A model generated the notes under the pieces. That model saw nothing but the letters and a program-made list of their open reading frames with translations, was not told the DNA's origin and made no database searches. From the IMG/VR virus record IMGVR_UViG_3300025887_000009: a stretch of DNA of 64,000 nucleotides. The stretch is one strand, 5' to 3'. The stretch is from a virus (lineage: Duplodnaviria > Heunggongvirae > Uroviricota > Caudoviricetes). The position numbers were made by a program, and so were the translations under genes. Numbering within the stretch: the stretch's first letter is position 1; the number at the start of each line of letters is the position of its first letter. This document shows, in pieces, positions 24,122 through 59,595 of the stretch.

Positions 24122-24955
24122 ATGGATAACCAAAAAGACATTTTTAAAGCTTTAATTCAAGCAGTAAAATCAAACGACGTAGACACTAAGCCAGCAAAGC
24201 AACTAAACGAAGCGGCAGCAGCAAATATCAGTCTTACAGGCGACAGCGCGGCAGAAGTAGAACAACTAATGCGTATGTTCAAAAATGCAGGAATGCCAGA
24301 TGCAGCGCCGGCGCCGATGTCTATTCAATCAGGCGAAGAAGAATCATGTGGGTCAGGCAGTGAAGAAGATCCTGAATCAATATCGATAGCAATGGGCGAC
24401 ATGGAAGACGAGCACGAAAATGGCGAATATGACAGCCAGTCTAACGAAGAATATGAAAATGAGCCAAATGACGAGTACCAAGACAACGAGTATATGCAAC
24501 ATGATTTAGCTGGCGGTATTAACAAGCCGAAGAAAATGTATGCAAAAGCACAAGATGGTGACAACGCAATGGCAGTTGAAACTATTAAGCAGTCTCTTTT
24601 GAAAGCACTTAGTGAAAAGATGCAAGATGACAAAGTCGCCGAAGCAAGCAAACCGTCATGGGAAAAAGAAGGCAGCTGGTCAAAGAATATAAAGAAGAAG
24701 CAAGACGAATATCTTCCTAAGAGTTCAAAGAAGCCAGTTGCTAAAGAAAAGAATACAACTGAAGCTTCAAAAGAAACGAAGTTTTCAGGCTATTCAAAAG
24801 GCAATAATAAAAAAGGGCATCCAGACCAAGGCAAGCTTGTTGGAGAGAGCAAAGAAGTTAACGATATTGTTAAACTTGCCCTAACAGAAGTAAACGCACC
24901 TTCTGCAAACAAAACACAACATGCACTGGACCTTAAGAAACTAGCAGGTATCTAA
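24122..24955 (+). CDS. acidic hypothetical protein, C-terminal ...DLKKLAGI (scaffold-like tail motif)
   Basis: RBS GGAGG. Acidic middle. The C-terminus matches the scaffold C-terminus ...DLRRLAGLK. Confidence 0.5.
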   Translation: MDNQKDIFKALIQAVKSNDVDTKPAKQLNEAAAANISLTGDSAAEVEQLMRMFKNAGMPDAAPAPMSIQSGEEESCGSGSEEDPESISIAMGDMEDEHENGEYDSQSNEEYENEPNDEYQDNEYMQHDLAGGINKPKKMYAKAQDGDNAMAVETIKQSLLKALSEKMQDDKVAEASKPSWEKEGSWSKNIKKKQDEYLPKSSKKPVAKEKNTTEASKETKFSGYSKGNNKKGHPDQGKLVGESKEVNDIVKLALTEVNAPSANKTQHALDLKKLAGI

Positions 24956-26539
24956 ATGTCAAAGTCGTTAGACGGCGTACTGATTAAAAAAGCCAATCAG
25001 AAGGAATCATACACTGAAAAAGAAGTTGGAGAACTTATAAAGTGTATGGATCCTGATGATGGCTATTTGTATTTTTCTAGAAATTTCGCATATATTCAAC
25101 ACCCTGTAAAAGGTAAGTTGTTATTTGCTCCATATGAATATCAGCTAGGATTAATGGACAGTTATCACAGCTTTAGATTTAATATTAATATGATGCCTAG
25201 ACAAACGGGTAAAACTACTTGTGCTGCTATCTATCTTGCATGGTATGCAATGTTTAATCCAGACCAAACTATTCTAATTGCTGCTCACAAATACACAGGT
25301 GCGCAGGAAATTATGTCACGTATACGATTTGTATACGAAAGTTGCCCTGATCATATTAGAGCCGGGGTTACAAGCTATAACAAAGGTTCTATTGAATTTG
25401 AAAATGGATCACGTATTGTAAGCCAAACAACAACAGGCAACACAGGACGTGGTATGTCTATTTCGTTATTATATTGTGACGAATTTGCATTTGTGCAACC
25501 TAACATTGCTGAAGAATTTTGGACTTCAATTTCACCTACACTAGCAACAGGTGGACGTGCAATTCTTACAAGCACGCCTAACTCAGATGAAGATACATTT
25601 GCTACTATATGGAAAGGTGCAGAACAAAAGTTTGACGAGCACGGCAACGAGAGCGACGTAGGAGTCAACGGGTTTCACTCGTTTATATCAACATGGGACG
25701 AACATCCAGATAGAGACGAAGCGTGGAAAGCTACCGAAGTTGGAAGAATTGGTGAAGAGAAATTCCGTCGTGAATACGGCTGTGAATTCCTTGTATTTGA
25801 TGAGACTCTTATTCACGCAATTAAGCTTGCTGAAATGGAAGGCATATCTCCTATACTTAATATGGGACAAACACGCTGGTATAAGAAGCCAAAGAAACAA
25901 TATTCTTATGTTGTAGCACTCGACCCTAGTATGGGAACCGGTGGCAACAATGCAGCTATACAAATTATCGAAGTTCCTACTTACATACAAGTAGGAGAAT
26001 GGATGCACAACGACACAGGCATACCTGGGCAGATACGAGTACTAAAAGACATCTGCACGTACATTGCAGATAGATGTAAAAATAATGGAGAAAATGTATA
26101 CTGGTCTGTTGAAAATAACGGACTTGGAGAAGCAGCTCTAATTGTAATTGATGATTTTGGAGAAGAAACTATTCCCGGAATGTTCCTCTCAGAGCCTGCA
26201 CGAAAAGGGCACGTTCGTAAATTCCGTAAAGGTTTTAACACGACTCACGGGCATAAGATCTCGTCGTGTTCTAAGTTAAAAACGATGGTAGAAAATAATA
26301 AATTTACCATTAATTCAAAGCCACTTATTTCTGAATTAAAAAACTTTGTAGCAACTGGATCTTCGTATCAAGCTAAGTCGGGACAAACAGACGACTTGGT
26401 TTCTGCAATCTTGTTAACCTTACGAATGCTAACAGTAATGAAAGACTGGGATGCAAAGATTTATAACACCTTCACACAACTTGACGAGGATGAGAAATAC
26501 GACGTTGCTCCGATGCCAATGTTTATCAGTATAACTTAA
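24956..26539 (+). CDS. 17: terminase large subunit
   Basis: Walker A 'MPRQTGKTT'. Classic T4 gp17-like ATPase N-domain and nuclease C-domain layout. Confidence 0.9.
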   Translation: MSKSLDGVLIKKANQKESYTEKEVGELIKCMDPDDGYLYFSRNFAYIQHPVKGKLLFAPYEYQLGLMDSYHSFRFNINMMPRQTGKTTCAAIYLAWYAMFNPDQTILIAAHKYTGAQEIMSRIRFVYESCPDHIRAGVTSYNKGSIEFENGSRIVSQTTTGNTGRGMSISLLYCDEFAFVQPNIAEEFWTSISPTLATGGRAILTSTPNSDEDTFATIWKGAEQKFDEHGNESDVGVNGFHSFISTWDEHPDRDEAWKATEVGRIGEEKFRREYGCEFLVFDETLIHAIKLAEMEGISPILNMGQTRWYKKPKKQYSYVVALDPSMGTGGNNAAIQIIEVPTYIQVGEWMHNDTGIPGQIRVLKDICTYIADRCKNNGENVYWSVENNGLGEAALIVIDDFGEETIPGMFLSEPARKGHVRKFRKGFNTTHGHKISSCSKLKTMVENNKFTINSKPLISELKNFVATGSSYQAKSGQTDDLVSAILLTLRMLTVMKDWDAKIYNTFTQLDEDEKYDVAPMPMFISIT

Positions 26540-26549: not shown

Positions 26550-29222
26550 ATGAAAGATTTAAGCACAATAGGTGAAGAACTATTTAACAAGATTCGCGGA
26601 CGATTCCCGTCAGTTACCATCGGTGACGAAAACGGCAAAGTAACCAACGTTCCAGAAGAGGCAAGATTTTTTGATTTTGCATATTCAAAAATGGATCCAA
26701 ACAACAAAGTATCTGTTAGCATAGATGAAGACAGTGGCTTGGTTGTGATGTACAACAGTGATTTAATTGCACTCGAAGGCAGCAACAGAAAAAGCGACTG
26801 GTACGGATTCTTACGTGAGTTACGTCGATTTGCTCGCAAGCGGTTACTTAGTTTTGACACTAGAGATATTGAGCGCAACAATTTAAAGAAAAGAGATTAC
26901 AAGTATCTCGCTAAACCTCCAAAGGACGAATCAATGAACGAATCAAAGATGTACGGCACTGCAAGAATAAGCTACCAGGATGTAGGAAACGCAAGATTAA
27001 TGGTGCGTCATACTAAGCCGGTAAACACAGAATTACCAACAGGTAGAACGATGCATATTGAAGGCATTTACATTGAGAGTTCAGAAGGTGAAAGATTTAA
27101 ATATCCATTTAAGCACATGTCAGGTGCTCGTGCAATGGCTCGTCACGTATCCGAAGGCGGTAATGCGTATGATGAGTTTGGCGGGCACATTACGGGACTA
27201 TCAGAAGAACTAGCAAAACTACGCAAGTTTAAATCGTACATGGGTCGTTCAAGTGTTATGGCAGAAGGTTTGTCGGGATACATGGACGTTGTTAACGAAC
27301 GAGTAAGCGAAGTAAAATCACGCATTGATAAACTACAGCGCGAAAGCTATTACAAAGAAGCTTTTGAAGGTTTTGAAAAGCCTATGTTTGAAGATGTTCC
27401 AGAAGACGTAAAGCAAGACTGGATTGCACAACTTACAATTAAACAGTTTAACGAAGAATTGCAAGATGTATTTCCTTACATCTACAAGCTTATCGGAGAA
27501 GCCGGACCACGCGAGCTTACAGCTGATGAGATGGTGTCCGAAGATGATCCGTGCTGGAAAGATCACAAGCAAGTTGGAATGAAAGAAAAAAGCGGCAAAA
27601 AAGTGCCAAATTGTGTTCCGGAAGAAGAAGAACTAGAACGCGGAATTGAAGAAATGATGGGACAATTTGCAGAACATCAAATATCCGAAAAGAAAGATTA
27701 CAACTTTACAGCAGATGACATTCAAAAACTACAACGCATCAAAGATTTGAAGCAAGCACAAGAATTTGCATTTAAATTAGTTTCTGCAGATTCAGCTAAG
27801 CCTATGCAAAAGCAAAAAGTTAACTGGTTTAAGCAAAATATTGCTTCAAAGAAATCAGTAATGGATCTTGTAAAAATGATGTACGACCTTCTACTAAGTG
27901 GAGAAGGTAAAGGTGTAATTGGATCAGGTAGCAGCATGAGCAAAAACAGCTATCGCAGAACATTTGATTCTGTTGAAGAAGCCGGCGGCGTTGGTAACCT
28001 TTATCTTAAATTTAGAACACAAATGACTCCGGGTTCGAGCGCAGAAGGTTCTGTTCCTTACCTTGTAGGTTTTGCAGGTTTTGAACAAGATCCTAAAGAT
28101 CTAAAAATGAAAACAGCAACCCGAAAGTTTCTTAACTTAAACACTCAAAAAGATATTCAGAACGCTGTTAAGAAATTGATGAACGACAAGGTGTTTGTAA
28201 ACGCTGGGAAGATTATATTATATAGAGAAGACAGTGTAGTCGGGCAACACCCGCAACTGCGTGACTTCTTTAAGTGGATGAAATCATACAGCGGCGAAGC
28301 AGTCGGAGTAGAACGTGCGCCGGATAGAGACAAGATTGAAAAAGATCCTAATGGACCTCTTAAAAAGAGAGCAAAGAAAGGCTCGTTTGCATCAGGAGAC
28401 AGAGAAGTAACTGCACCTGATAAGAAGATGACTAGATACCTTACTATTGATAATGCTCGACTTCTTGACATGTTTAAAAAGCAATATCCAGACTTTATGA
28501 GAAAGTATTACAAGCCTGCTCAGAGGACGTTTGTTATGCCTGATAAGGTCTACAGACAATTTGCAAACACAGTAACGAAGCCGGCAATAGTACAAAGCTA
28601 TGGTCCAACTAAGATAACAGTTGATCAAGAGAAGAGTTTTGCAGAAGAGCCACAAATGAAAGCAGCAAAGCCGGATCAGATACCATTAGGTGAATTTATC
28701 CTTAGCTATTTTGATAAAGAAACTGGGCGATTCCCTAAGGGCGAAACAGCAGTGCTTACGTCAATTGAGAAAGACTATGGTGAAAGCTTTATTGATCCTG
28801 CAAAGAAGTTTATTGAACAGATCCACGGTAAGTTCGCAGAGCATACTAAGCGTCCAGAAATAAATGATGTAGAGCAACTAGGCGACAGTGAAATTGGCGA
28901 GAGAGCCGGCGAAAAAAGTGGTGAATTTGACAGCTATATAGACGATGACGACGGCACAGAAGTAACTGTACATTGGGAAGCAGACGAAGATATGTACGGA
29001 AATTCCGACATCACATTTTATGCAGTTGATGCAGCAGGAAACGAAGTAGATTATTCTCCAAGAGATGAAGCTCGTTGGAAAGAAGAACTCGGCGATCAAA
29101 TGAGCAGCTACGACGACGAACGCGGCGATCATATGTATCAACAGCAAAAAGACAACGGCTTTGAATCATCTGGGTACCGTGAAGAAATGGCTGGTATTGC
29201 AAAGTTAGCAGGTTTAAAGTAA
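26550..29222 (+). CDS. large hypothetical protein (890 aa), C-terminal ...IAKLAGLK
   Basis: Long uninterrupted ORF with an AATAAATACAATATG start. No polymerase or portal motifs seen. The C-terminus shares the LAGLK tail with the scaffold protein. Confidence 0.55.
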   Translation: MKDLSTIGEELFNKIRGRFPSVTIGDENGKVTNVPEEARFFDFAYSKMDPNNKVSVSIDEDSGLVVMYNSDLIALEGSNRKSDWYGFLRELRRFARKRLLSFDTRDIERNNLKKRDYKYLAKPPKDESMNESKMYGTARISYQDVGNARLMVRHTKPVNTELPTGRTMHIEGIYIESSEGERFKYPFKHMSGARAMARHVSEGGNAYDEFGGHITGLSEELAKLRKFKSYMGRSSVMAEGLSGYMDVVNERVSEVKSRIDKLQRESYYKEAFEGFEKPMFEDVPEDVKQDWIAQLTIKQFNEELQDVFPYIYKLIGEAGPRELTADEMVSEDDPCWKDHKQVGMKEKSGKKVPNCVPEEEELERGIEEMMGQFAEHQISEKKDYNFTADDIQKLQRIKDLKQAQEFAFKLVSADSAKPMQKQKVNWFKQNIASKKSVMDLVKMMYDLLLSGEGKGVIGSGSSMSKNSYRRTFDSVEEAGGVGNLYLKFRTQMTPGSSAEGSVPYLVGFAGFEQDPKDLKMKTATRKFLNLNTQKDIQNAVKKLMNDKVFVNAGKIILYREDSVVGQHPQLRDFFKWMKSYSGEAVGVERAPDRDKIEKDPNGPLKKRAKKGSFASGDREVTAPDKKMTRYLTIDNARLLDMFKKQYPDFMRKYYKPAQRTFVMPDKVYRQFANTVTKPAIVQSYGPTKITVDQEKSFAEEPQMKAAKPDQIPLGEFILSYFDKETGRFPKGETAVLTSIEKDYGESFIDPAKKFIEQIHGKFAEHTKRPEINDVEQLGDSEIGERAGEKSGEFDSYIDDDDGTEVTVHWEADEDMYGNSDITFYAVDAAGNEVDYSPRDEARWKEELGDQMSSYDDERGDHMYQQQKDNGFESSGYREEMAGIAKLAGLK

Positions 29223-31744: not shown

Positions 31745-32200
31745 ATGGGATGGTACAATAAAGTATCAAGTGACATTAACGAGATTCCAAATGCGATTGC
31801 ATATTATGAATCTGAATTAGTAGACGCCCAAAAGGAAGTTCGCCTCAAAGGAAATGTAGAAAAAGCAGCCGCTGAATTACCAGGATTGGTAGAACAGCGG
31901 TTTGCTCAACTACAAGAAATCGAAGCAATACTAAATCATCTTAACATTAAACTACGTAAAGTACGATCTGTACTTTTTAAAAAGTATCTTGAAAATTATC
32001 AAAGAGCACTGTCTAGTAGAGACGTTGAAAAATACGTTGACGGAGAACAGGCAGTAATCGACTATGAAGATCTAATTAACGAATTTGCACTTGTGCGTAA
32101 TCGCTGGTTAGCAGTTCTAAAAGGACTGGATCAAAAACAGTGGCAGATTACAAACATTGTTAAACTACGAGTAGCAGGAATGGAAGATGCCTCAGTATGA
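31745..32200 (+). CDS. hypothetical protein, possibly UvsY-like recombination mediator
   Basis: Sits next to uvsX. 151-aa helical protein with faint pattern similarity to the T4 UvsY C-terminal region. Speculative. Confidence 0.3.
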   Translation: MGWYNKVSSDINEIPNAIAYYESELVDAQKEVRLKGNVEKAAAELPGLVEQRFAQLQEIEAILNHLNIKLRKVRSVLFKKYLENYQRALSSRDVEKYVDGEQAVIDYEDLINEFALVRNRWLAVLKGLDQKQWQITNIVKLRVAGMEDASV

Positions 32201-32853
32201 GCAATAATATTAAACACGGATGGCATGTGCTTGAGGGAGATAATACCCTCGAGCGTGCTATGAAAAAAGAAAGAATAACAGAAGTTTCTGAATATCAAAA
32301 ACAACAGTTAGACATTTCTTATAAATTTTGTAAACAGTTTCGACATGCAATTGATGTAGGAGCAAATTACGGAATAATGTCGTACAACATGGCTAGGAAG
32401 TTTCAAAAAGTTTCTGCATTTGAAATTGTACCAGAAGTACTAGAATGTTTTAAACTTAATGCTGCTAAGTTTAACCTATCAAATGTTGATATTTACAACT
32501 GCGGGTTAGGCAATAAAGAAGAAACAGTATCCTTGCATTTTAATCCAGGCAAAACTTTTTCCACTCATGTAGACACAAGCAAACCCGGAAACGTAAAAGT
32601 TAATAAATTAGATTATTACAATTTTACAGATGTAGATTTCATCAAAATCGATGCAGAAGGATTTGAATCATTTATAATCGAAGGCGGAATGGAAACAATT
32701 CAGAAATACAAACCGGTTATTTTGTATGAAAGAAAAGGACATTCGCAACGATATAACAAACCTAACAGTATTGTCTTGGACATATTAGCCCCGTTAGGGT
32801 ATAAAGAATTAGCACCGATAGATAGAAAAAATGCGTTAATAGGTGTAGCATGA
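32197..32853 (+). CDS. FkbM-family methyltransferase 1
   Basis: 'IDVGANYGIMS' SAM motif and 'FIKIDAEGFE' match the FkbM domain signature. Confidence 0.7.
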   Translation: MSNNIKHGWHVLEGDNTLERAMKKERITEVSEYQKQQLDISYKFCKQFRHAIDVGANYGIMSYNMARKFQKVSAFEIVPEVLECFKLNAAKFNLSNVDIYNCGLGNKEETVSLHFNPGKTFSTHVDTSKPGNVKVNKLDYYNFTDVDFIKIDAEGFESFIIEGGMETIQKYKPVILYERKGHSQRYNKPNSIVLDILAPLGYKELAPIDRKNALIGVA

Positions 32854-33476
32854 AACAGGTTTACAAATATTGGATGCCCGACAGCGATGACCATTTTGAA
32901 AGATTAATTACCAAGCGAATTAAAAATGGCGGACCTGCAGAATATCAGGATGACGTCAGAGACGAAGCATACAAGTACGTAACTGATTTTAATTTAGCAG
33001 TAGATGTTGGCGCAAATGTCGGATTATGGGCAAGACCGTTAAGTGAAAAATTTGGAAAAGTCTTAGCATATGAACCTATTCAAGAGGTTTATAAATGTTT
33101 GAAATTAAATGTACGAGACTGCAATGTACAACTAAACAACTTTGCTTTAGGCAATGCAAACAGCACAATTGAAATGATTTTTGATCGAGAAAATACCGGT
33201 GCAAGTTACGTTGACGAAAGTTCAATAGGCAAAGGCAGTATTGATATAAAGCGTATGGATGATTTAAATTTACCAAGGTTTGGATTACTTAAAATTGATT
33301 GTGAAAGATTTGAATTAGAAGTACTCAATGGCGGTATTGAAACTATTTTAAAATATAAACCTATTGTAGTAGTTGAGCAACACCCTGATACTGAATATTG
33401 TGCAGGAAAGTTTTTAAAAGAATACGGTGCAAAAGAAATCACCAATGTCAGGAAAGACTATATTTTCGGCTGGTAA
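32850..33476 (+). CDS. FkbM-family methyltransferase 2
   Basis: 'VDVGANVGLWA' and 'LLKIDCERFE'. 4-nt ATGA overlap with the upstream methyltransferase. Confidence 0.7.
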   Translation: MKQVYKYWMPDSDDHFERLITKRIKNGGPAEYQDDVRDEAYKYVTDFNLAVDVGANVGLWARPLSEKFGKVLAYEPIQEVYKCLKLNVRDCNVQLNNFALGNANSTIEMIFDRENTGASYVDESSIGKGSIDIKRMDDLNLPRFGLLKIDCERFELEVLNGGIETILKYKPIVVVEQHPDTEYCAGKFLKEYGAKEITNVRKDYIFGW

Positions 33477-33513
33477 TGGTTAAATAGCAGCATATAATTT
33501 AATAGGAATAACA

Positions 33514-34221
33514 ATGAAAAATAGAGTTTATATAGGCTACGATCCAAGAGAAGATATTGCGTATCAAGTATGCAAATACAGCATAGAATCTCGCAATCCG
33601 GATATCGAAGTTATACCTCTTAAGCAACAAGAATTACGCAATTACGAATTATACTGGAGAGAAATAGATAAGTTAGCAGCAACTGAATTTACTTTTACTA
33701 GATTTCTTATACCTGAATTAAATAAATTCGAAGGCTGGGCGTTATTTTGTGATTGCGACATTTTGTTTTTAACAGACGTACAAGAACTTTTTGATCAAGC
33801 AGATGACCAATATGCTGTGATGTGTGCGCAGCACGATTATAAGCCAACAGACACAATTAAGATGGATGGACAAGTTCAATCAATTTATCCACGTAAGAAT
33901 TGGAGCTCGGTTATGCTTATTAATTGCGGACACGCATCAAATAAGCAACTAACAAAAGAGCTTGTTAATCATCCAGATACTACTGGTGCATTCTTGCATA
34001 GATTTAGTTGGTTAGATGACAGCGAAGTTGGAGAGTTTAGTCACGAATGGAATTGGTTAGTTGATTGGTATGAAGAACCATCTAACGGTAAACCAAAGGC
34101 ATTACATTATACGTCAGGCGGACCTTGGTTTGAGAACTATAGATTTTGCCATTATCATAAAGAATGGAAATACGAACTTAGAAAAATGATGAACGACAAT
34201 CCAGAAGAAGCCAATGACTGA
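33514..34221 (+). CDS. glycosyltransferase family 8-like (retaining, DxD)
   Basis: 'TRFLIPEL...WALFCDCDILFL' (DxD), 'VMLINCG', and the GT8 C-terminal motif 'HYTSGGPWFE' (HxxGxxKPW-like). Confidence 0.6.
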   Translation: MKNRVYIGYDPREDIAYQVCKYSIESRNPDIEVIPLKQQELRNYELYWREIDKLAATEFTFTRFLIPELNKFEGWALFCDCDILFLTDVQELFDQADDQYAVMCAQHDYKPTDTIKMDGQVQSIYPRKNWSSVMLINCGHASNKQLTKELVNHPDTTGAFLHRFSWLDDSEVGEFSHEWNWLVDWYEEPSNGKPKALHYTSGGPWFENYRFCHYHKEWKYELRKMMNDNPEEAND

Positions 34222-35023
34222 AGTAAGAATGCTAGGCACAGATTCTACAGATGTAATCTTAGGAGCATGGATTGAAGGCACCGGTGGCATATCAATTAAT
34301 GCTAAATCTAGAGATGATTATCCTAAGCATATTCCTCTTGCATTCCGGTCGCTAACTAAGCGTAAATTAATTTATGCACTTTGGGACGAGGGCAGAGACT
34401 TCTATTATATAGATACTGGATACATCGGCAATCTAGGAAAAAGAAAAGATTTTCATCGTGTTGTTAAAAATAACGTACAACATTTAACCGGTGTTAAAAA
34501 GATGCCAAGAGACAGATTCGAAACTATATGCAGAATGCAACCTTATATGGAATATAAAGGAAAAAGACAAGACACAGGTGAAGCAATTCTTGTCGTTACT
34601 CCATCAGGTAAACCCTGCCAATTTTATAATGTTAACAGGGACAAATGGTTAGAAGAAACAATAAGTGAGATTAAAAAACATACAAATCGTCCTATTGTTA
34701 TACGTGATAAACCCGATCGTCGTAATCGTGTCGGCGACAACTCATTAGCCGCACAGTTACAAACCGATAACATACATGCGCTAGTGACGTACAATTCAAT
34801 TGCTGCTGTTGAAGCAATACATGCAGGAGTGCCAGCGTTTACCCTTGCTCCAAATGCTGCGCAATCACTAGCATCGCAAGATTTATCTACAATCGAAGAT
34901 CCGTATTATCCAGCAGAAGAAGCAGTAGAAGAATTTCTTTGTTATTTGGCGTATTGTCAGTACACCCCAGAAGAACTAGCCGACGGAACAGCATGGAAAC
35001 TACAACAGGAATATCAGCTATGA
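34214..35023 (+). CDS. GT-B-like paralog A (putative glycosyltransferase)
   Basis: C-terminal region 'IVIRDKPDRRN...LVTYNSIAAVEAIHAGVPAFTL...LAYCQYTPEELADG' is paralogous to the ORFs at 35020 and 36787. Confidence 0.5.
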   Translation: MTEVRMLGTDSTDVILGAWIEGTGGISINAKSRDDYPKHIPLAFRSLTKRKLIYALWDEGRDFYYIDTGYIGNLGKRKDFHRVVKNNVQHLTGVKKMPRDRFETICRMQPYMEYKGKRQDTGEAILVVTPSGKPCQFYNVNRDKWLEETISEIKKHTNRPIVIRDKPDRRNRVGDNSLAAQLQTDNIHALVTYNSIAAVEAIHAGVPAFTLAPNAAQSLASQDLSTIEDPYYPAEEAVEEFLCYLAYCQYTPEELADGTAWKLQQEYQL

Positions 35024-35961
35024 TTTCGGTTGCTGCATATCTATCAGGAATACCACCTAACAACAGAAACCTTGAAAAACCGCTTTTGATTAAGAACTTC
35101 ATAGAGGGCGTAAACAATTCAGGAGATCAAGGTACTGTTGTCGACACAAGAACAGTACTTCCTGCAGACGTAGCATTAATACAAGGCTTTGTGCACGCCA
35201 ACAGCAAAAATACTCCCCATTTGATGTTGCGCAAAAAAGTTTTCGAAACACAGTTAGAAGAGAACAAGCGTTGTATTATAGCAGACAGCAATTTGTTTCT
35301 TTATGCAGATCCGGGTAATTCAAAAAAATATCTACGTTATTCGTACGATGGAGTATTTCCAAATACTGGAGAATATTGTAATGCAAGTCCTGATCCGGAA
35401 CGCTGGGAAAAGATAAAAACAGCCTTAGGGATTGCATTAAAGCCTTGGGATTTTAATGGCAAATATTTTCTAATTTGTTGTCAGCGTGACGGCGGTTGGA
35501 GTATGGGCGGCAATAGCATTGTTCCGTGGTTAATTAATACTATAACCGAAATGCGAAGATATTCAACTACTCCTATTAAAATACGATTCCATCCCGGTGA
35601 CAAAAAGAAAAAAGATCATATAGCAAGAATAAAAAGATTACGTATACCAGATACTGAAATATCGGTTGAACCCGATATCCGCAACGACTTTAAGAAAGCA
35701 AAGGCAGTAATCACGTATAACTCATCTCCCGGGGTTGCAGCAGCAATAGAAGGTAAACCTGTGGTTGTATTAGATCCGCAACGAAGCCAAGCTGCTTCTG
35801 TTTCTCATCACCATCTTAGAGATCTAAAAAACTTAAAAGAATTTGATAGAGAATTTTGGATACAGCAAATTGCACAAATGCATTGGAATTTAGACGAACT
35901 AAAATCAGGCGAAGCGTGGACCCATATGAAGAAATGGGCAAAATTGGAAACAAAAACATGA
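35020..35961 (+). CDS. GT-B-like paralog B (putative glycosyltransferase)
   Basis: ATGA overlap. 'IKIRFHPGD...VITYNSSPGVAAAIEGKPVVVL' shares the paralogous core and carries an HP motif. Confidence 0.5.
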   Translation: MISVAAYLSGIPPNNRNLEKPLLIKNFIEGVNNSGDQGTVVDTRTVLPADVALIQGFVHANSKNTPHLMLRKKVFETQLEENKRCIIADSNLFLYADPGNSKKYLRYSYDGVFPNTGEYCNASPDPERWEKIKTALGIALKPWDFNGKYFLICCQRDGGWSMGGNSIVPWLINTITEMRRYSTTPIKIRFHPGDKKKKDHIARIKRLRIPDTEISVEPDIRNDFKKAKAVITYNSSPGVAAAIEGKPVVVLDPQRSQAASVSHHHLRDLKNLKEFDREFWIQQIAQMHWNLDELKSGEAWTHMKKWAKLETKT

Positions 35962-36797
35962 AGATCGAAGTAGTAACTACATTTCATAAAGAAGGTCTAG
36001 ACACATATGGTCAGAGATTTTTAAACAGCTTTGCACATAATGTGCCTAAAGAAATAAAACTCACAGTGTACGCAGAGAATTGTGTTCCTGTTAATCCTAA
36101 TTCTAAGCAAATTGTAATATTAGATGCAAGCCACTTAACTGACTTACATGAGTTTAAAACAAAATGGAAAGATGTTCCTAAAGCAAATGGCAAATGTCCG
36201 TTTCCAGAAAGACGTCCGAGAGACCATCATAAAGAATTTAAATGGGATGCTGTGAGATTTGCTAATAAAGTGTATGCGGTATTTGATGCAGTAATGAAAA
36301 CCGATGCCGACTGGGTAGTATGGATGGATGCAGACACTTATGTTCACTCACCTATTACTAACGAAGAGTTTGAATCGTTGTTAGATCCTAAACATTGGAT
36401 AACTTACGTTGGACGCGGCAAAGGTTCGCAGTCGTGGCCGGAGTGTGGATTCTACGGAATAAACATGCACGATCCAGCAGCACAATATTTCCTAGGCGAG
36501 TTTCAGCGTATGTACGACGATGCAGAAAATGGAATCTTCAAACTAGAAGAATGGCACGACTCGTTTGTGTTTGGGCATATATTAAATGACATGAAATCTA
36601 AGTATCCTCACTTTTATGATTACACAGATGGGATATATAACAAGACTGCTAAAACTGGCGGTGGCGGACACCCCCTTATTAATAGTGTGCTAGGCACGTG
36701 GTTTGATCACATGAAAGGCGGTCGTAAAGACACAGGACATTCTCATAAAAAAGATCTAATGTCCCAACGCAAGGAAAAATATTGGAATGAAATTTAG
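35958..36797 (+). CDS. GT-A-like DxD glycosyltransferase (putative)
   Basis: ATGA overlap. 'DWVVWMDADTYV' is a DxD motif preceded by a hydrophobic strand. Confidence 0.45.
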   Translation: MKIEVVTTFHKEGLDTYGQRFLNSFAHNVPKEIKLTVYAENCVPVNPNSKQIVILDASHLTDLHEFKTKWKDVPKANGKCPFPERRPRDHHKEFKWDAVRFANKVYAVFDAVMKTDADWVVWMDADTYVHSPITNEEFESLLDPKHWITYVGRGKGSQSWPECGFYGINMHDPAAQYFLGEFQRMYDDAENGIFKLEEWHDSFVFGHILNDMKSKYPHFYDYTDGIYNKTAKTGGGGHPLINSVLGTWFDHMKGGRKDTGHSHKKDLMSQRKEKYWNEI

Positions 36798-37617
36798 TCT
36801 ATGGACCAAATACGGAGCGCAAAACTCAAAACCTGTATTTGATGCTTTTGCACAATCATTAAAAAATGAAGGGCACACTGTTGTTTACAATGAGCCTGGA
36901 GCAGACAAAGACGTAATATGGAGCGTACTTTGGAAAGGAAAGATGGCATCAAATAAAGCCATCTTTAACAGCAGCACTATTGTTTTAGAAGTAGGCGGTA
37001 TTAAACGAGGCACAACGTGGAAGGTAGCAATAGGTGGCATAGATCGCCATGCAATGTTTCCGAGACCAGATCCAGGGGACGAACGAGCTAAGAAGCTAGG
37101 ATTAAAAGCAGACCTATGGTGCCCAAATACAAAAGGACCGGTTGTAATTTGTTGTCAAAATTATAATTCATTTCAGTGGAACGGAAAACCAAGTATCGAA
37201 CAATGGTTAGAAAATACTATAATTGAACTTCGGCAACACACCAAACGAGACATTCTAATTAGAGCCCATCCAAGATCTACAATTTCCGACATATCTAAAA
37301 AATTCAAAAACGTGCAATATTCAGTACCAACAAAAATCCCCCGCAGCTACGATGATTACGACTTCAATCCAAAAACCGCTTGGGCAGTAGTTAACGCATC
37401 TTCTGGCCCTGGTGTACAAGCAGCTATAAAAGGGATCCCTGTTTTTGTAGAAAATGCAAGCCTGGCATGGGACGTAGGAAATCATAACCTTTCTACAATA
37501 GAACATCCAGAAATGCCAGATCGCACAGAATGGATAAATCATTTAGCTTACACAGAATGGACTGTGTCTGAGATTGCCAGCGGCGAACCGTTAAAGAGGT
37601 TGACAGATCACTTGTAG
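36787..37617 (+). CDS. GT-B-like paralog C (putative glycosyltransferase)
   Basis: 'ILIRAHPRS...AVVNASSGPGVQAAIKGIPVFV...LAYTEWTVSEIASG' gives a paralogous core with an HP motif. 11-nt overlap upstream. Confidence 0.5.
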   Translation: MKFSLWTKYGAQNSKPVFDAFAQSLKNEGHTVVYNEPGADKDVIWSVLWKGKMASNKAIFNSSTIVLEVGGIKRGTTWKVAIGGIDRHAMFPRPDPGDERAKKLGLKADLWCPNTKGPVVICCQNYNSFQWNGKPSIEQWLENTIIELRQHTKRDILIRAHPRSTISDISKKFKNVQYSVPTKIPRSYDDYDFNPKTAWAVVNASSGPGVQAAIKGIPVFVENASLAWDVGNHNLSTIEHPEMPDRTEWINHLAYTEWTVSEIASGEPLKRLTDHL

Positions 37618-37657: not shown

Positions 37658-38872
37658 ATGCAAGATATTGAAACCATGATCGCTACCTTACATCTAACCA
37701 AGGTAATGAAAGATTCTAAAGATAAAAAAGTAATTTCATCTTTGTATCGACAAACAGCTGATAATAAACTAGGACTAACTGCTCGTCAGATGGTTCTAGC
37801 TTCTTCTATTTTAGACAAACATCGTAGTTATCTTGAAGAAACTAAAATTGACTACGATGTCGCTATTGCTAATACTGCCCTTGGAATCAGAGAAATTGAT
37901 CGCACACGTTTGATTACAATAATTGATTCAACGATTGCTGTACGATTTGCATTCTCAACCGAAATCCTTAAAAAAATAAGAGTCTTACAACGAGACATTG
38001 CAGGGCACTATTACAAAGACAAAACTCATTTCTGGCCCGCAACGCACAAAAATCTTTATAAAATTATTTCAAATTTAAAGGATATGTCTTTTGAAATCGA
38101 AGAAGACTTAATGGAACGATACGCAGAATACGAAAATATTATCTTAAACAAAACTGCACATCTTCCTTATGTTGAAATTGGGAAAATTTCAAGACTTCAT
38201 GCCAATTCAAAAAAAGCAATGATAGCAGAACTCGGAGAACCAGCTGCGGAAAATATTCACTTGTTTCAAGATCGTTCTGTGCAGTACGGAACACTTGTAA
38301 ATCAAGATCAAGTAAACAATGCATTGCGTTCAAAAACAGAATTGACTGGACTAATTGCAAATCGATGCAAATCGCATGTTAATCTTTTGCCTAGCGAATT
38401 CGGGTATAGTGACATTTTTAAGTCGTTGCTAGAACTCAACCGATTCCCTCTCATGATCGTACTTGATGATAAATCTGCATTGCAGCAATTAAAGACTACA
38501 CACGATGCGTTGCAGGGAATTGTTGCAAACGAAGACATCTCTGTTCTATATCGATTGCTTAACAAAGGCACCGGCATTGAATACAACGAATATGTAAAGT
38601 CAAGCAAAATCAACAACCGACTTGACAAAACTACTAAAGTGTTGTATACTAACAAGAATAAGCTACAAAAAACTATTTTAAAAGAAAATATACAAGCTAA
38701 GACAATTTTATTATGCTCGAGTACTAGATTAACTGCTAAACTCGAGAACTACGCAAATTCAACAGACTTGGTCATTCATTATGATACCTCTATAACAAGC
38801 TGGAGAAGCGTATTGCAAAGAACGGAACTCTTACGGAGAATGAATGCCAACGTGCCAATTAAAAATATTTGA
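37658..38872 (+). CDS. hypothetical protein (404 aa)
   Basis: Long ORF between the sugar operon and uvsW. Confidence 0.5.
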   Translation: MQDIETMIATLHLTKVMKDSKDKKVISSLYRQTADNKLGLTARQMVLASSILDKHRSYLEETKIDYDVAIANTALGIREIDRTRLITIIDSTIAVRFAFSTEILKKIRVLQRDIAGHYYKDKTHFWPATHKNLYKIISNLKDMSFEIEEDLMERYAEYENIILNKTAHLPYVEIGKISRLHANSKKAMIAELGEPAAENIHLFQDRSVQYGTLVNQDQVNNALRSKTELTGLIANRCKSHVNLLPSEFGYSDIFKSLLELNRFPLMIVLDDKSALQQLKTTHDALQGIVANEDISVLYRLLNKGTGIEYNEYVKSSKINNRLDKTTKVLYTNKNKLQKTILKENIQAKTILLCSSTRLTAKLENYANSTDLVIHYDTSITSWRSVLQRTELLRRMNANVPIKNI

Positions 38873-41474: not shown

Positions 41475-42153
41475 TAAACCTTTTAAGTGTGGTTATTGCA
41501 ACACTGGGTTTACTAGAGAAAAAACATTATTCTCACATACGTGTGAACAAAAGCGCAGGCATTTGCAAAAAGACGACAAGCATGTTCGTCTTGCGTTTTA
41601 TGCTTTCTTGAGGTTTTATAAACTAAACGTAGGATCAACTACAAAAGAAAAGAGCTACGACGATTTTTGTAGATCGCAATATTATAAAGCATTTGTTAAA
41701 TTTGGATCGTATGTGTCAAACGTTAAGCCATTGTATCCTGAAAAATATATTGACTATGTTGTAACAAGTGGCGCAAAATTGGATCATTGGTGCAGAGATG
41801 AATTGTATGAAAAGTATGCACTAGCATACATTCTCAAAGAAGATGCAACAGTAGCACTAACTCGATCGATAGAAACAATGGATGCATGGGCAAAAGAAAA
41901 TAACTCTTCGTACAATCATTATTTCTTATATGCATCACCGAACAGAATTGTACGAGATGTCAGAGATGGTAAAGTATCCCCGTGGTTAATGCTAAATTGT
42001 AAGAGCGGTAAAGAAGCGCTGAATAAATTTAATGACGAGCAACTAAGCAACGTGTTTGATGTAATTAATCCAAAGAACTGGACTATACGTTTTAGCAGAG
42101 AAAAAGATGATGTTGCACTTATAAAAGACATAGCTAAGAAGGCAAACCTATAA
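41449..42153 (+). CDS. hypothetical protein with C2H2-like zinc finger
   Basis: Internal Met start with a 26-nt overlap (ORF track start 41380). 'FKCGYCNTGFTREKTLFSHTCEQ'. Confidence 0.4.
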   Translation: MKNETSRSNKPFKCGYCNTGFTREKTLFSHTCEQKRRHLQKDDKHVRLAFYAFLRFYKLNVGSTTKEKSYDDFCRSQYYKAFVKFGSYVSNVKPLYPEKYIDYVVTSGAKLDHWCRDELYEKYALAYILKEDATVALTRSIETMDAWAKENNSSYNHYFLYASPNRIVRDVRDGKVSPWLMLNCKSGKEALNKFNDEQLSNVFDVINPKNWTIRFSREKDDVALIKDIAKKANL

Positions 42154-42653
42154 TGGAATTAGTACACTACCCAGCAGAAATATTAAACAAACAATTAAAA
42201 CTAATTGATATTGAAAACATCGATTTTGACCCAAATGAATTACTTAAAGAAATGTCAGACACAATGCTTGCATCGGACGGCGTTGGCTTAGCAGCTTGTC
42301 AAGTTGGAATAGATCGTGCATTGTTTATTATGGGCGACAAAGTTGCTGGTGTAAAAATGTTTATCAATCCTCAAGTCCTACAGCACACATCTGACACTGG
42401 ATTAGACTACGAAGGATGTTTGTCGTTTCCTGGAATGTTTGTAAAAGTAAAACGTCCAAAAGAAATCTTAGTTCAATATTTCGACGAGGATCTTGTGCAG
42501 CAAACAGTTAAAATCGATGACTACTCTGCCCGGGTGTTTTTGCACGAATGGGACCACTTGCAAGGTATCACATTTAAAGACCGAGTAAGTAAACTCAAAT
42601 GGGATAGAGCAAGACAAAAGAAAAACAAAGTAGCAAAGCTGTATTCAATCTAA
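42153..42653 (+). CDS. def: peptide deformylase
   Basis: Deformylase motifs 'GVGLAACQVG', 'EGCLSFPG' and 'HEWDHLQG' are all present. Confidence 0.85.
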   Translation: MELVHYPAEILNKQLKLIDIENIDFDPNELLKEMSDTMLASDGVGLAACQVGIDRALFIMGDKVAGVKMFINPQVLQHTSDTGLDYEGCLSFPGMFVKVKRPKEILVQYFDEDLVQQTVKIDDYSARVFLHEWDHLQGITFKDRVSKLKWDRARQKKNKVAKLYSI

Positions 42654-46182: not shown

Positions 46183-47154
46183 ATGACAACAAAAATTATC
46201 TGGGGAATGACTGGTAACAGCCATGACGCAAGCATTGCCGGTTTTACACACGACGGTAAAACATTAACACCAAAATGGGCAAAGTTAGCCAATAACTCTG
46301 ACATCACCGAAGAGCTTATTCAAGGAGCAATAGAAAATGTCGGTTACCCGGATCAAGTAGTCTGGTATGAAAAACCTTTGTTAAAAACTCTACGACAATG
46401 GCGTGCAGGGCAAGGATGGTTGCTAAAAGAAAACAACATCAAGCAATATCTTGCAGAACGTAATTTATGCGACATTCCTATCGTCTATACCAAACACCAC
46501 CTCAGTCATGCAGCATATGCTTACTATACGCAACCGTATGCCGACTGTGCAATAATCTGTCTTGACTCAATTGGAGAGTTTGAAACATTAACGATGTGGA
46601 AAGGCGACAAAGACTGGCGGCTTACTAAAGTCTATTCACAAAACTATCCGCATAGTCTTGGTTTGTTTTATTCAGCTATGGTTCAGCGCGCCGGCGGCAC
46701 GCCGCAACAAGATGAACATTTGTTAGCAGCACTCGGCGATCCAGTAAAAGGTATTGATTCTCTTGTTCCTGCTATCTACGAAGATATTTTGGAAATACAA
46801 GACACTGCTCCGTTTATTAAGATGAAGCAAAACTTGCACAAAGGATACAAAGACTGGCGTCCAGATCTTAAAAAATTTAAGGATCGAAAACGCATTGCAG
46901 CGGCAACACAATCAGTATTTGAAGATTGCATCAGTCATTTGTCGTCTAAAGCAGTGTATCTAACTGGATCACCAAATCTTGCACTTGCAGGTGGCGGAGC
47001 AATGAATAAAAGAGCGGTTGACAAAATTCGAAATCAATGGCATAATGTACATGTACCGGTAAATCCAGGCGACCCAGGGTCTGCGATAGGTGCAGTTCTA
47101 GCGCGGTATAATCAGCGTGTGAACATAGACGGAATTTGGGAGACAAAGGAGTAA
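46183..47154 (+). CDS. carbamoyltransferase N-terminal (Kae1/NodU-like ASKHA) domain protein
   Basis: 'ILGMTGNSHDASIA', 'HHLSHAAYAY', 'CLDSIGE', 'SLGLFYSAMVQ', 'LAGGGAMNKRAV' and 'NPGDPGSAIGAVL' match the NodU/CmcH/TobZ N-domain. No YrdC-like C-domain. Confidence 0.6.
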   Translation: MTTKIIWGMTGNSHDASIAGFTHDGKTLTPKWAKLANNSDITEELIQGAIENVGYPDQVVWYEKPLLKTLRQWRAGQGWLLKENNIKQYLAERNLCDIPIVYTKHHLSHAAYAYYTQPYADCAIICLDSIGEFETLTMWKGDKDWRLTKVYSQNYPHSLGLFYSAMVQRAGGTPQQDEHLLAALGDPVKGIDSLVPAIYEDILEIQDTAPFIKMKQNLHKGYKDWRPDLKKFKDRKRIAAATQSVFEDCISHLSSKAVYLTGSPNLALAGGGAMNKRAVDKIRNQWHNVHVPVNPGDPGSAIGAVLARYNQRVNIDGIWETKE

Positions 47155-52808: not shown

Positions 52809-53035
52809 GTTTTGTTAATGCTTTCTTGTTCGAGCAGATCTAGCAGCCAGCCACCGCCTTCATAAACACTGTCGTGCCAAACAAATCCAGCATCTTCCAG
52901 CTTGTTGAGTTCTTCTTGTGAAAGTTGATCTCGCGGTGCAAGATCGCCAGGAATACCAAATGAGCCGTTGCCTTTTTCTTCAATGCGCGTCAACATCATT
53001 TCTAGTACTTCGATAAGATTTTTATCAAGTTTCAT
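52805..53035 (-). CDS. hypothetical early protein
   Basis: Packed ORF with a 4-nt overlap. Confidence 0.4.
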   Translation of the reverse strand: MKLDKNLIEVLEMMLTRIEEKGNGSFGIPGDLAPRDQLSQEELNKLEDAGFVWHDSVYEGGGWLLDLLEQESINKT

Positions 53036-59313: not shown

Positions 59314-59595
59314 TTACGCATATTGTAACCTCATTAATGTTTTTTCTACTTCGGTGTATGTGTCGACTAGTTCAAGCCACTCGTCAAATAAAAGTGGTTT
59401 GCCTTTATAAAACCAATGTCGGTCGCCATTTGTATATTCAGCTGCTGGGCCGTCAACACGATGCAGTCGGCCTTCGAACCACCAACTGTATTCGCCATTT
59501 GCATATTCAACTGCCGGTCCATCAGTTCTGTGCAGCAATCCGTCTTGATACCAATACCGGTCGCCGCTTGCAAGTGTAGCTACTCCATTACGCAT
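59314..59595 (-). CDS. MORN-variant repeat protein (2 repeats)
   Basis: Last gene of the array. 'MRNGVATLASGDRYWYQDGLLHRTDGPAVEYANG...TLMRLQYA'. Confidence 0.65.
   Translation of the reverse strand: MRNGVATLASGDRYWYQDGLLHRTDGPAVEYANGEYSWWFEGRLHRVDGPAAEYTNGDRHWFYKGKPLLFDEWLELVDTYTEVEKTLMRLQYA

Follow-up and report, generated by a model that had tools for sequence, protein, structure and literature searches.

An uncultured marine jumbo phage carries a cluster of seven genes for methyltransferases and glycosyltransferases, which raises the question of what glycan these enzymes assemble and on which acceptor it is placed. A preliminary description of the window (the whole 64-kb stretch of phage DNA analysed here) had proposed a branched, O-methylated oligosaccharide on a hydroxymethyl pyrimidine of the phage DNA, with glycosylation of virion or host surface structures as the fallback. 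We compared the locus with 86 of the related loci, which number at least 583 in IMG/VR, and with known glycosylation systems, and the evidence points in the direction of that fallback.

Gene order and junctions of the cluster

The seven open reading frames run in one direction and fill positions 32197-37617 exactly, as had been described, although the order is methyltransferase, methyltransferase, GT8, KpsC-like, KpsC-like, GT-A and KpsC-like (Table 1), with the DxD enzyme sixth and not fourth. The cluster does lie between uvsX and uvsW, but that placement skips p74 and uvsY, its upstream neighbours, and a 404-aa gene whose function was not recognised, which precedes uvsW downstream. Five internal junctions overlap, by 4 nt (g1/g2, ATGA), 8 nt (g3/g4), 4 nt (g4/g5), 4 nt (g5/g6) and 11 nt (g6/g7), whereas g2 and g3 are separated by a 37-nt spacer, so the earlier statement that overlaps join all seven genes holds for five junctions only. 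The stop codon of uvsY and the start of g1 also overlap (ATGA), and the coupled chain therefore begins upstream of 32197. From uvsY to g7, six of seven junctions overlap, compared with 25 of 75 in the remaining window, a density that is above the phage background, yet not exotic. Each of the seven proteins is soluble, and the window showed no gene for a flippase, an ABC exporter or an initiating phosphoglycosyltransferase.

Table 1. Features of the glycan cluster; gene coordinates are those of ATG starts
Feature	Position	Strand	Remarks
g1, FkbM methyltransferase	32197..32853	+	218 aa; accessory, varies by lineage
g2, FkbM methyltransferase	32850..33476	+	208 aa; accessory
Late-promoter-like element TTAAATAGCAG	33480..33490	+	In the sole intergenic spacer of the array
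g3, divergent GT8-family glycosyltransferase, GT-A, retaining-type	33514..34221	+	235 aa; conserved core starts here
g4, KpsC-like-fold paralogue	34214..35023	+	269 aa; lacks the Gln and His-Pro motifs
g5, KpsC/WbbB-like-fold glycosyltransferase	35020..35961	+	313 aa, counted from the ATGA-overlapping ATG
g6, GT-A-fold DxD glycosyltransferase	35958..36797	+	279 aa; family unclassified, phage-restricted
g7, KpsC/WbbB-like-fold glycosyltransferase	36787..37617	+	276 aa

Enzyme families and their motifs

Both methyltransferases score above the curated cut-offs of PF05050 and TIGR01444 (2.7e-13 and 3e-22 for g1, 8.6e-14 and 1.1e-23 for g2) and carry the FkbM motifs quoted previously (IDVGANYG and KIDAEGFE in g1, VDVGANVG and KIDCERFE in g2). 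They share 37% identity; g1 matches the methyltransferase family phrog_8156, and g2 gives a weak match to V. cholerae RfbT. The g3 protein itself scores slightly under the gathering score of the GT8 profile PF01501 (7.4e-5), and 20 of the 21 members of its family match that profile (best 6e-9). Its top profile-to-PDB matches are the GT8 enzymes WbbM and GlyE, in an alignment that covers the DxD region, and D80xD82 and H198..G202GPW are invariant (sequence motifs FCDCD and LHYTSGGPWF), in line with the earlier GT8-like call from DxD and HY.SG.PW motifs. The protein is strongly acidic (pI ~5) and is 57-77% identical across the related loci.

The reported VVWMDADTYV motif and GT-A fold of g6 were both recovered, and no Pfam family could be assigned. 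Its best fold match is A64R, a capsid-glycosylating enzyme of chlorovirus PBCV-1, at 11% sequence identity and ahead of GT6 and GT8 matches by a small margin only. This is the most conserved protein of the cluster, with 62-70% identity across related loci, on par with UvsW, and a search of 185,579 genomes for cellular members of its family returned only five misbinned phage contigs.

The three GT-B-like proteins are paralogues, as had been noted: g4 matches g5 (2e-10) and g7 (9e-15), and g5 and g7 are 33% identical over 184 aa (5e-21). Their GT-B-derived fold is nearest to the beta-Kdo transferases KpsC (GT107), WbbB (GT99) and KrkA (GT140), while at the sequence level none of the three resembles any PDB chain or Pfam Capsule_synth, and g5 has no match in Pfam, PHROG or PDB. 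At 269-313 aa they are shorter than those enzymes and consist of a single module. Among the Gln, His-Pro and Asp motifs that define the KpsC/WbbB/KrkA type (PMC12887879), g5 keeps Gln155 and His191-Pro192, and g7 keeps Gln124 and His161-Pro162, with Gln-to-His spacings of 36 and 37 that approximate the 37 of WbbB (Gln228, His265). The g5 family conserves the patterns ccQR.gGWSM and R.HPGDk. In contrast, the Asp nucleophile of the QxxxD motif (Asp232 in WbbB), absolutely conserved in the known enzymes, is replaced by Ser in the g7 family (Ser128) and by Gly in g5 (Gln+4). The g4 family has neither the Gln nor the His-Pro motif, with PS.Kp and R.K..R at these positions, and g4 may either have a divergent donor specificity or be non-catalytic. 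Judging from ORF lengths, g3 and g4 are fused in some relatives (single ORFs of 564-577 aa, a g3 length plus a g4 length, in loci L046, L049, L050 and L086). A median pI of ~9 marks the g4 and g5 families as basic.

Conserved core, variable island and late-promoter-like elements

The genes g3-g4-g5-g6-g7 lie between uvsY and uvsW in every locus that spans this interval among the 86 compared, and this core status, together with the conservation of g6, fits an essential phage function better than an accessory host-modifying one. The 404-aa protein encoded next to g7 is fast-evolving and in the related loci invariably follows it. In contrast to the core, g1 is missing from most related loci and g2 is present in a subset only; the g2 stretch is a regional GC minimum (0.34-0.355). 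The methyltransferases are part of a hypervariable, strain-specific sugar island, whose slot in relatives holds other tailoring and sugar-nucleotide genes, namely a CTP_transf_3 (KdsB/NeuA family) fusion, a GT29 sialyltransferase-like gene, a DegT aminotransferase, epimerase/dehydratases and additional methyltransferases. GT25 and GT9 genes occur in related islands and modules. This interval between recombination genes is a constant site of a hypervariable island, and the position is not in itself functional evidence.

Related modules also occur in other genomic settings. In CcrColossus the module is flanked by a tail protein and the lysis cassette, and one of its genes is MptE-like, with an annotation as alpha-2,3-sialyltransferase-like; in the small temperate P22-like podovirus ct7QV12 its position is immediately upstream of the terminase and portal genes. 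Pelagibacter phage Mosig EXVC030M (MT647606, genes 183-191) has a homologous, tightly packed module among early and DNA-metabolism genes, with two FkbM-like proteins (27-28% identity), a g6-like (31%), a g3-like (43%) and two KpsC-like proteins (28-29%), all annotated as hypothetical or putative only. This phage differs in being a T4-like member of the Kyanoviridae with a 141-kb genome, and its module has another gene order, a sulfotransferase and a further glycosyltransferase.

The element in the g2/g3 spacer precedes the g3 ATG by 33 nt. Its pattern TAAATAGYAG occurs three times in the 64 kb (0.33 expected), and the other two copies are upstream of the tail tube gene (20190) and of a virion structural gene (9753). 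The shorter TAAATA precedes 11 further genes, all structural or within the structural block, and in 33 of 44 diverged related loci it recurs in spacers of the island. The window gave no identifiable late sigma factor. From this short AT-rich motif and its likeness to T4 late promoters we infer that g3-g7 may be expressed late. As a separate observation, both tail-tube paralogues have C-terminal tails rich in Ser, Thr and Gly, which we record as a lead only.

The acceptor of the glycan

That the gene set builds and methylates a glycan is borne out by the FkbM, GT8, GT-A and KpsC-like assignments, while nothing was found to support a branched product. We propose a phage-encoded cytoplasmic assembly line in which the five soluble glycosyltransferases of the clade-wide core (g3-g7) would build one fixed core oligosaccharide, which g1 and g2 would then O-methylate in this phage. 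NDP-hexoses are the probable donors of g3 and g6. The Gln and His-Pro retained in g5 and g7 would bind the sugar carboxylate and handle the CMP leaving group, respectively, and these enzymes probably transfer a CMP-activated ulosonic acid, either Kdo or a nonulosonic acid; this assignment comes from two short motifs, as likeness of fold leaves the donor sugar unfixed. The CMP-sugar genes of the variable island support such a donor. Lacking the Asp nucleophile, g5 and g7 probably act by single displacement (inverting), like sialyltransferases, and the degenerate paralogue g4 may serve as a scaffold or take a different donor.

The likeliest acceptor, which we put forward tentatively and as putative, is at least one virion structural protein, modified late, before or during assembly. 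Virion-protein glycosylation is favoured by the late-promoter-like elements and by the related modules beside structural genes, and the soluble enzymes, the lack of export or initiating functions in the window and the A64R match of g6 also count for it. Against it stand the translational coupling of g1/g2 to uvsY, the recombination genes on both flanks and the setting of the Mosig module. GT8, GT25 and GT9 are, moreover, classic LPS-core families, and to our knowledge all characterised members of the KpsC/WbbB/KrkA fold act on lipid-linked glycans and not on proteins. These enzyme relationships suit a somewhat unlikely alternative, in which soluble enzymes at the cytoplasmic face of the inner membrane remodel a host envelope glycolipid (the lipid A-Kdo core of LOS, the lyso-PG-Kdo capsule linker or an Und-PP-linked glycan) and host machinery exports the product; the altered surface would block superinfection or the adsorption of progeny to debris. 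Known relatives of each enzyme class work on such substrates, LgtC and WbbM among the GT8 enzymes included, basic g4 and g5 families would be expected of proteins that bind anionic membranes, prophages classically convert the surface of their hosts (ct7QV12 is temperate), and such a role is commonly proposed in the marine phage literature. However, a clade-wide core as conserved as g6, in phages whose hosts presumably differ in surface, would be unusual for accessory genes, late-promoter-like elements fit badly with a superinfection block, which should come early, membrane anchors, transporters and ligases are absent, and the g6 family is without cellular members.

Another cytoplasmic acceptor appears improbable; it could be a host protein such as flagellin or pilin, in the manner of Maf-type nonulosonate transferases, a phage protein that is not structural, or else a small molecule or free oligosaccharide. 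The solubility of every enzyme, the unexplained 404-aa protein and the MptE-like gene of CcrColossus are compatible with such a target; the latter presumably shares its Pfam family with the flagellin glycosyltransferases of the Maf type, and phages of the phiCbK type make use of the flagellum. Nothing specific points to such an acceptor, though, and a core kept so strictly throughout a large clade speaks for a target intrinsic to the phage.

The least probable reading, in our view, is the DNA hypermodification that had been proposed, in which a modified base of the phage DNA would carry the methylated oligosaccharide and so evade restriction or other nucleic-acid defences; we found nothing to support its hydroxymethyl-pyrimidine form. 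The position between uvsY and uvsW counts for DNA modification (in T4, beta-gt adjoins uvsX), as does the basic g5, and core status would suit essential genome protection. Known DNA sugar-hypermodification clusters (T4 alpha/beta-gt; C5-MT/5mYOX/GT and ThyS/GT, Pyle et al. 2024) likewise use glycosyltransferases derived from LPS enzymes, which attach mono- to trisaccharides, heptose included, to 5hmC, often among DNA-metabolism neighbours; in the work of Pyle et al. the secondary, chain-extending enzymes are GT8-like with A64R as best PDB match, which resembles the folds of g3 and g6. Characterised clusters normally adjoin the enzymes that generate the hydroxymethyl pyrimidine, although ~65% of the glycosyltransferase contigs have no base-modifying gene nearby, so that distance by itself does not eliminate DNA as acceptor (Pyle et al. 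2024). In the hydroxymethylase search suggested earlier, ThyA-like genes were absent from the 64-kb window, from 10 kb to either side in the 86 related loci and from two complete genomes, that of Mosig, which has only ThyX, and that of ct7QV12. Among the Pfam matches of the window proteins there was neither a TET/JBP-type 5mYOX nor a C5-cytosine methyltransferase family, and by product name no 5mYOX is annotated in ct7QV12 or in Mosig, which does have Fe(II)/2OG oxygenases without an assignment. Also unlike DNA-glycan clusters, the locus has no first-sugar transferase resembling T4 beta-GT, JGT or TarP, and its five conserved glycosyltransferases are more than any described DNA glycan pathway has. 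FkbM enzymes O-methylate sugars and polyketides and are not DNA methyltransferases, and the late-promoter-like elements and the acidic g3 count further against DNA as acceptor.

The view that neither pathway had precedent does not hold, given the 5hmC trisaccharides above and the virion cassettes of mycobacteriophages. In the chloroviruses, the capsid glycan has a conserved core and strain-specific decorations. PBCV-1 (A64R/A064R and partners) resembles the present phage in its virus-encoded GT-A glycosyltransferases and sugar methyltransferase activity; it differs in infecting a eukaryote, in carrying its glycans N-linked to the major capsid protein and in having no known KpsC-like enzymes, and A64R is related to g6 at the level of fold only. 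The mycobacteriophage cassettes (cluster O/Corndog type; Freeman et al. 2023, as summarised in PMC11600133 and PMC12619734) glycosylate the C-termini of the phage's own capsid and tail tube proteins. According to those summaries, they too place an O-methyltransferase gene before tandem genes for soluble cytoplasmic glycosyltransferases, but these number three, not five, belong to other families with no KpsC-like enzyme described, and serve phages of Gram-positive-like actinobacterial hosts, and it is here that the methyltransferases are the variable rather than the fixed part. Modification of the virion by the present cluster would parallel the virion glycosylation of both mycobacteriophages and chloroviruses.

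Genomic setting of the cluster

The window derives from an uncultured jumbo myovirus, of whose genome it covers a fragment. Metagenomic contigs (33 and 93 kb) carry identical sequence, the exact product of g6, the sixth of the seven cluster genes (g1 to g7), was found on a further contig (up to 209 kb), and relatives of the phage reach up to 330-350 kb. No match came back when the cluster was compared by megablast with 50,697 phage records. The phage is without a cultured close relative. The best matches of its UvsX, at ~65% identity, are to jumbo phages of the Atu_ph07/Rak2 type, which are the closest cultured relatives and do not carry the cluster. Metagenomic homologues of g6 and of g7 number in the thousands, none of them named; cluster-member names all read 'hypothetical protein'.

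Features of the window, with strand and spacing from the preceding gene where given (negative values are overlaps)
Feature	Position	Strand	Spacing (nt)	Remark
Tail and baseplate genes				Upstream end of the local gene order
Protein ending in ...RRLAGLK	3162-4262			
Gene starts preceded by TAAATA	5868, 8187, 9753, 15100, 16906, 20190, 20897, 22974, 23548, 26550, 43581			
Sheath	16906-20154			
Tail-tube paralogue	20190-20822			210 aa
Tail-tube paralogue	20897-22039			380 aa, adjacent to the 210-aa paralogue
Protein ending in ...KKLAGI	24122-24955			
TerL	24956-26539			
Virion-protein-like gene				890 aa, after TerL
Protein ending in ...AKLAGLK	26550-29222			
gp32, UvsX, p74				In this order before UvsY; p74 is a 74-aa gene
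UvsY	31745-32200			
g1	32197-32853		-4 (ATGA)	FkbM-family methyltransferase
g2	32850-33476		-4	FkbM-family methyltransferase
g3	33514-34221		+37	GT8
g4	34214-35023		-8	KpsC-like paralogue
g5	35020-35961		-4	KpsC-like paralogue
g6	35958-36797		-4	GT-A type
g7	36787-37617		-11	KpsC-like paralogue
p404	37658-38872			404 aa, directly downstream of g7
UvsW				After p404
Peptide deformylase	42153-42653	+		Further downstream of UvsW
Primase				After the deformylase
Carbamoyltransferase fragment	46183-47154			After the primase
DnaB				After the carbamoyltransferase
cREC_REC receiver-like domain protein	53032-53406	-		
SPFH/Band-7 protein	57096-58469	-		
Array of small genes	59588-62325	-		

Six of the seven junctions from uvsY to g7 overlap, against 25 of 75 in the rest of the window. 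The preliminary description had all seven genes joined by overlaps, which holds for the other internal junctions but not for g2/g3, and the chain begins at uvsY. Its gene order was wrong, as the DxD enzyme is the sixth gene.

Outside the cluster, a near-identical C-terminal motif recurs in three proteins encoded within or close to the structural block, and may represent a common signal for targeting, cleavage or docking. The minus-strand array consists of six small genes in tandem (184, 138, 184, 184, 115 and 115 aa) with 8-nt overlaps throughout and weak DUF6745 matches in two of them, and looks like a paralogous family expanded in place. The NodU/Nol-like carbamoyltransferase (323 aa; PF02543, phrog_1601) consists of the N-terminal domain alone, and its gene stops 1 nt short of that for the DnaB helicase. 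It is a potential further sugar- or nucleoside-modifying enzyme; the Pelagibacter phage Mosig also carries a carbamoyltransferase, within a second glycan-like island.

Conserved core and variable island

The five-enzyme core occurs in at least 583 IMG/VR loci, and we mapped the window proteins onto 86 related loci. Downstream of gp32-UvsX-p74-UvsY, the order g3-g4-g5-g6-g7-p404-UvsW was found in every locus of the 86 that spans it, with identities of 62-70% for g6, 65-70% for UvsW and 57-77% for g3. The FkbM genes lie outside this core and are absent, single or double among the loci. As the core is conserved and the FkbM genes vary, the real unit is a core of five glycosyltransferases with lineage-specific tailoring, which in the window phage amounts to just the two methyltransferases, encoded in a stretch of lower GC.

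Between uvsY and g3 lies a mosaic island. Its contents in other members of the clade include GT25 enzymes, epimerase/dehydratases, Methyltransf_24/CmcI-like enzymes, a DegT aminotransferase, a GT29 sialyltransferase-like gene and an Asn-synthase-like amidotransferase. A cytidylyltransferase-cupin gene occurs there in 51 of the 86 loci and is absent from the window phage, and the island of some relatives encodes a KdsB/NeuA-family cytidylyltransferase fused to an RraA-like aldolase. Core-like conservation next to a hypervariable island suggests an essential glycan under diversifying selection.

Some relatives differ in the core itself. A single ORF of 564-577 aa replaces g3 and g4 in L046 (3247-4980), L049 (7165-8895), L050 (6792-8522) and L086 (4536-6230), and looks like a gene fusion linking both enzymes to one pathway, the alternative being a sequencing or frameshift artefact. 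In a sub-lineage, g5, g7 and every other neighbour share one strand and only g6 is on the other (L053, 9992-10828; also L055, L060, L062, L067, L068, L072, L074, L075, L077, L079, L084, L086 and L087), a single-gene inversion within a co-directional, overlapping array; g6 must therefore have its own promoter there. The basic protein p404 (pI 9.3) is always encoded between g7 and uvsW, with a 29-nt overlap with uvsW, and evolves much faster than its neighbours (25-34% identity across the loci versus ~65%). It had no above-threshold Pfam, no PHROG and no PDB match, even as a 25-sequence profile, and could belong to the glycan set or to the helicase.

Enzyme families of the cluster

The two FkbM profiles were matched by both g1 (50.8 bits to PF05050, 79.6 bits to TIGR01444) and g2 (52.5 and 84.3 bits), above the curated cut-offs of 22.7 and 37.7, and the SAM-binding DVGAN.G motif is present as IDVGANYG and VDVGANVG, which confirms the family proposed earlier for these genes. 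The two proteins share 37% identity. From the glycosyltransferase context and a weak match of g2 to RfbT, we infer that their substrate would be a sugar hydroxyl, resulting in O-methylation.

The GT8 and GT-A assignments of the preliminary description also held. Against Pfam GT8 (PF01501), g3 itself is borderline, at 22.9 bits under a gathering score of 24.3, and the same profile matches 20 of the 21 members of its family (best 6e-9). A g3 profile placed the GT8 enzymes WbbM and GlyE at the top of the PDB, with an alignment covering the DxD region, and both D80xD82 and the C-terminal H..G..PW motif (H198..GGPW; H198, G202, G203, P204, W205) are invariant in the family. For g6, the AlphaFold model (pLDDT 89.3) has a Rossmann-like GT-A fold, and D124xD126 is invariant in its family. 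No Pfam, NCBIfam or PHROG profile matched g6, PDB sequence and profile searches were likewise empty, and none of the 120 homologues listed carries a Pfam domain. When 185,579 bacterial and archaeal genomes were scanned for cellular relatives of g6 or a host, five matches were obtained, all of them phage contigs misbinned into unrelated MAGs, which leaves no host signal. By its modelled fold, g6 represents an unclassified, phage-only GT-A family. Cassette-bearing jumbo contigs of up to 335 kb (L090, L091 (PBPT01), L092, L093 and L094) form part of deposited MAGs that bear the labels Neomarinimicrobiota, Spirochaetaceae, Crocinitomicaceae and even Methanobacteriota; this placement is evidently misbinning, and host assignment from it is unreliable.

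The remaining three enzymes, g4, g5 and g7, are mutual paralogues (E 2e-10 to 5e-21), and the AlphaFold model of g7 matches the modified GT-B architecture of the beta-Kdo transferases KpsC, WbbB and KrkA. Among viral models, the fold resembles the 'capsule polysaccharide biosynthesis' paralogues of Tetraselmis virus 1 and one protein of the phage CcrColossus. PDB sequence and profile searches with g5 and the g7 family returned nothing significant. As the PDB searches with g3, g5, g6, the g6/g7 families and p404 were near-empty, the weak GT8 matches of g3 being the sole exception, only the fold comparison was informative.

Two motifs, QxxxD and HP, define the retaining Kdo transferases (PMC12887879; PMC9587256): the Gln holds the carboxylate of Kdo, the Asp serves as covalent nucleophile and, as is also seen in sialyltransferases, the His donates a proton to the CMP phosphate. 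Matched by spacing and predicted secondary structure rather than by residue-level superposition, Gln228 and His265 of WbbB, 37 residues apart, correspond to Gln124 and His161-Pro162 of g7, also 37 apart, and to Gln155 and His191-Pro192 of g5, 36 apart, and the position of the nucleophile (Gln+4, Asp232 in WbbB) is taken by a near-invariant Ser128 in the g7 family and by Gly in g5. P162 is invariant and H161 near-invariant in the g7 family, the g5 family has R.HPGDk, and the g4 family has neither the Gln nor the His-Pro motif (R.K..R instead), which would make g4 a degenerate paralogue. Architecture and His-Pro are thus common to g5/g7 and GT99, GT107 and GT140, but the defining Asp is lost in g5 and g7. 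On these residues, g5 and g7 are predicted to bind a CMP-activated ulosonic acid, which they would transfer by direct (inverting) displacement and not through a covalent Asp adduct. The KpsC-fold class is newly tied to phage glycosylation by these three paralogues, with Gln and HP kept in g5 and g7 and the Asp lost.

Late-promoter-like elements and the glycan acceptor

The only spacer of the array, between g2 and g3, holds TAAATAGCAG. Its TAAATA resembles the T4 late promoter, TATAAATA. TAAATAGYAG occurs three times in 64 kb against 0.33 expected, the other two copies lying upstream of a tail tube gene and of a virion structural gene. The HTAAATAB pattern is depleted overall (28 in the window versus ~41 expected), yet TAAATA stands a short way before 11 genes, each of them structural or within the structural block. 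Of 44 non-redundant relatives, 33 have TAAATA in short island spacers, usually 10-14 or 26-33 nt ahead of the ATG. The argument for late-promoter-like elements is one of a short AT-rich motif and of analogy with T4. Conservation of the element exactly upstream of g3 was dropped as a test, as another coding gene directly precedes g3 in most relatives. Sigma-70-like TTGACA/TATAAT pairs were observed upstream of gp32 and several replication genes.

Because of the late-promoter-like element, the adjacency to structural genes in relatives, a parallel in mycobacteriophages and the tails of the tail-tube proteins, we tentatively rank a virion protein first among the acceptors. In two of three other lineages the module adjoins structural genes: it lies directly upstream of the terminase in ct7QV12, a temperate P22-like podovirus, and the glycosyltransferase cluster of phiCbK-type Caulobacter phages, including CcrColossus, lies between tail and lysis genes. 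In contrast, the neighbours of the window cluster and of the Mosig module (two FkbM-like methyltransferases, a g6-like, a g3-like and two KpsC-like genes, and a sulfotransferase) are recombination/replication genes. In cluster O mycobacteriophages, an O-methyltransferase and three tandem glycosyltransferases glycosylate the capsid and the tail tube, the latter at its C-terminus (PMC11600133); phage-encoded tandem glycosyltransferases with a methyltransferase are common to that cassette and the window cluster. Both tail-tube paralogues of the window have S/T/G-rich, probably flexible C-termini, which we treat as a lead only. The 'TibC' annotation of a ct7QV12 gene, which had no PDB and no Pfam match, and the CcrColossus GT9 gene were dropped as evidence of protein heptosyltransferases. 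The 'moraphage' paper, which has four core glycosyltransferase orthogroups, was likewise dropped as a description of the clade, its identity with the clade not being established.

Remodelling of a host glycolipid comes second and is, in our view, rather unlikely. The synthesis of LOS, LPS core and capsule draws on these enzyme families, and the acceptors of known KpsC-fold enzymes are lipid-linked, but transmembrane segments are lacking in g1-g7, and the window Pfam results and the sampled islands show neither export nor initiation genes (KpsMTED, Wzx/Wzy, a WecA/WbaP-type initiator or a ligase), although host functions could replace them. Also counting against a glycolipid are the lack of cellular members of the g6 family in the scanned genomes and a conservation of the core that resembles that of an essential phage gene. 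Another cytoplasmic acceptor, third in our ranking, is improbable, and the chances of DNA hypermodification are slimmer still. The preliminary description had raised glycosylation of a hydroxymethyl pyrimidine in DNA, yet the Pfam results for the window genes contain no ThyA-type hydroxymethylase, no TET/JBP-type 5mYOX and no route to that base through a C5-methyltransferase with 5mYOX/TET or a ThyA-like enzyme. A tblastn search with E. coli ThyA gave no match in the window, the 86 related loci, Mosig or ct7QV12. By name, the annotations of the complete Mosig genome and of ct7QV12 include no ThyA-type hydroxymethylase or 5mYOX, Mosig having ThyX only, along with many Fe(II)/2OG oxygenases listed without assignment. 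Nor was any enzyme like T4 alpha/beta-GT, JGT or TarP found that would attach the first sugar. DNA-glycan clusters usually adjoin ThyS or 5mYOX, which speaks against DNA, and their chain-extending glycosyltransferases can be GT8-/A64R-like, which speaks for it (Pyle et al.). The lack of a ThyA-type enzyme in the window, the 86 loci, Mosig and ct7QV12 weakens the case for DNA, and the hydroxymethyl-pyrimidine proposal is unsupported. It is unlikely, though conceivable, that the five-glycosyltransferase core and its tailoring decorate phage DNA with an acidic, methylated, ulosonic-acid oligosaccharide, the base-modifying enzymes lying elsewhere in the >300 kb genome. The pI and hydropathy of the cluster proteins do not discriminate between acceptors.

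Phage-encoded glycan cassettes with methyltransferases are of a kind known from mycobacteriophages, chloroviruses and DNA-glycan clusters. What is new is that the core is clade-wide in an abundant marine lineage of jumbo phages and goes together with a hypervariable sugar island: five glycan enzymes are conserved like replication proteins across a large, globally distributed, uncultured clade. The cluster adds two unclassified glycosyltransferase families, g6 and the g5/g7 subclass, the latter a natural test case for comparing double-displacement Kdo transferases with inverting enzymes. If the acceptor were DNA, this would be a new class of DNA modification, with a glycan far larger than any known on DNA, across an abundant marine phage clade. 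Experimental demonstrations of virus-encoded virion glycosylation are confined to a few phage groups and to giant eukaryotic viruses, and if the acceptor is a virion protein, as we favour, such glycosylation would extend to Gram-negative marine jumbo phages.
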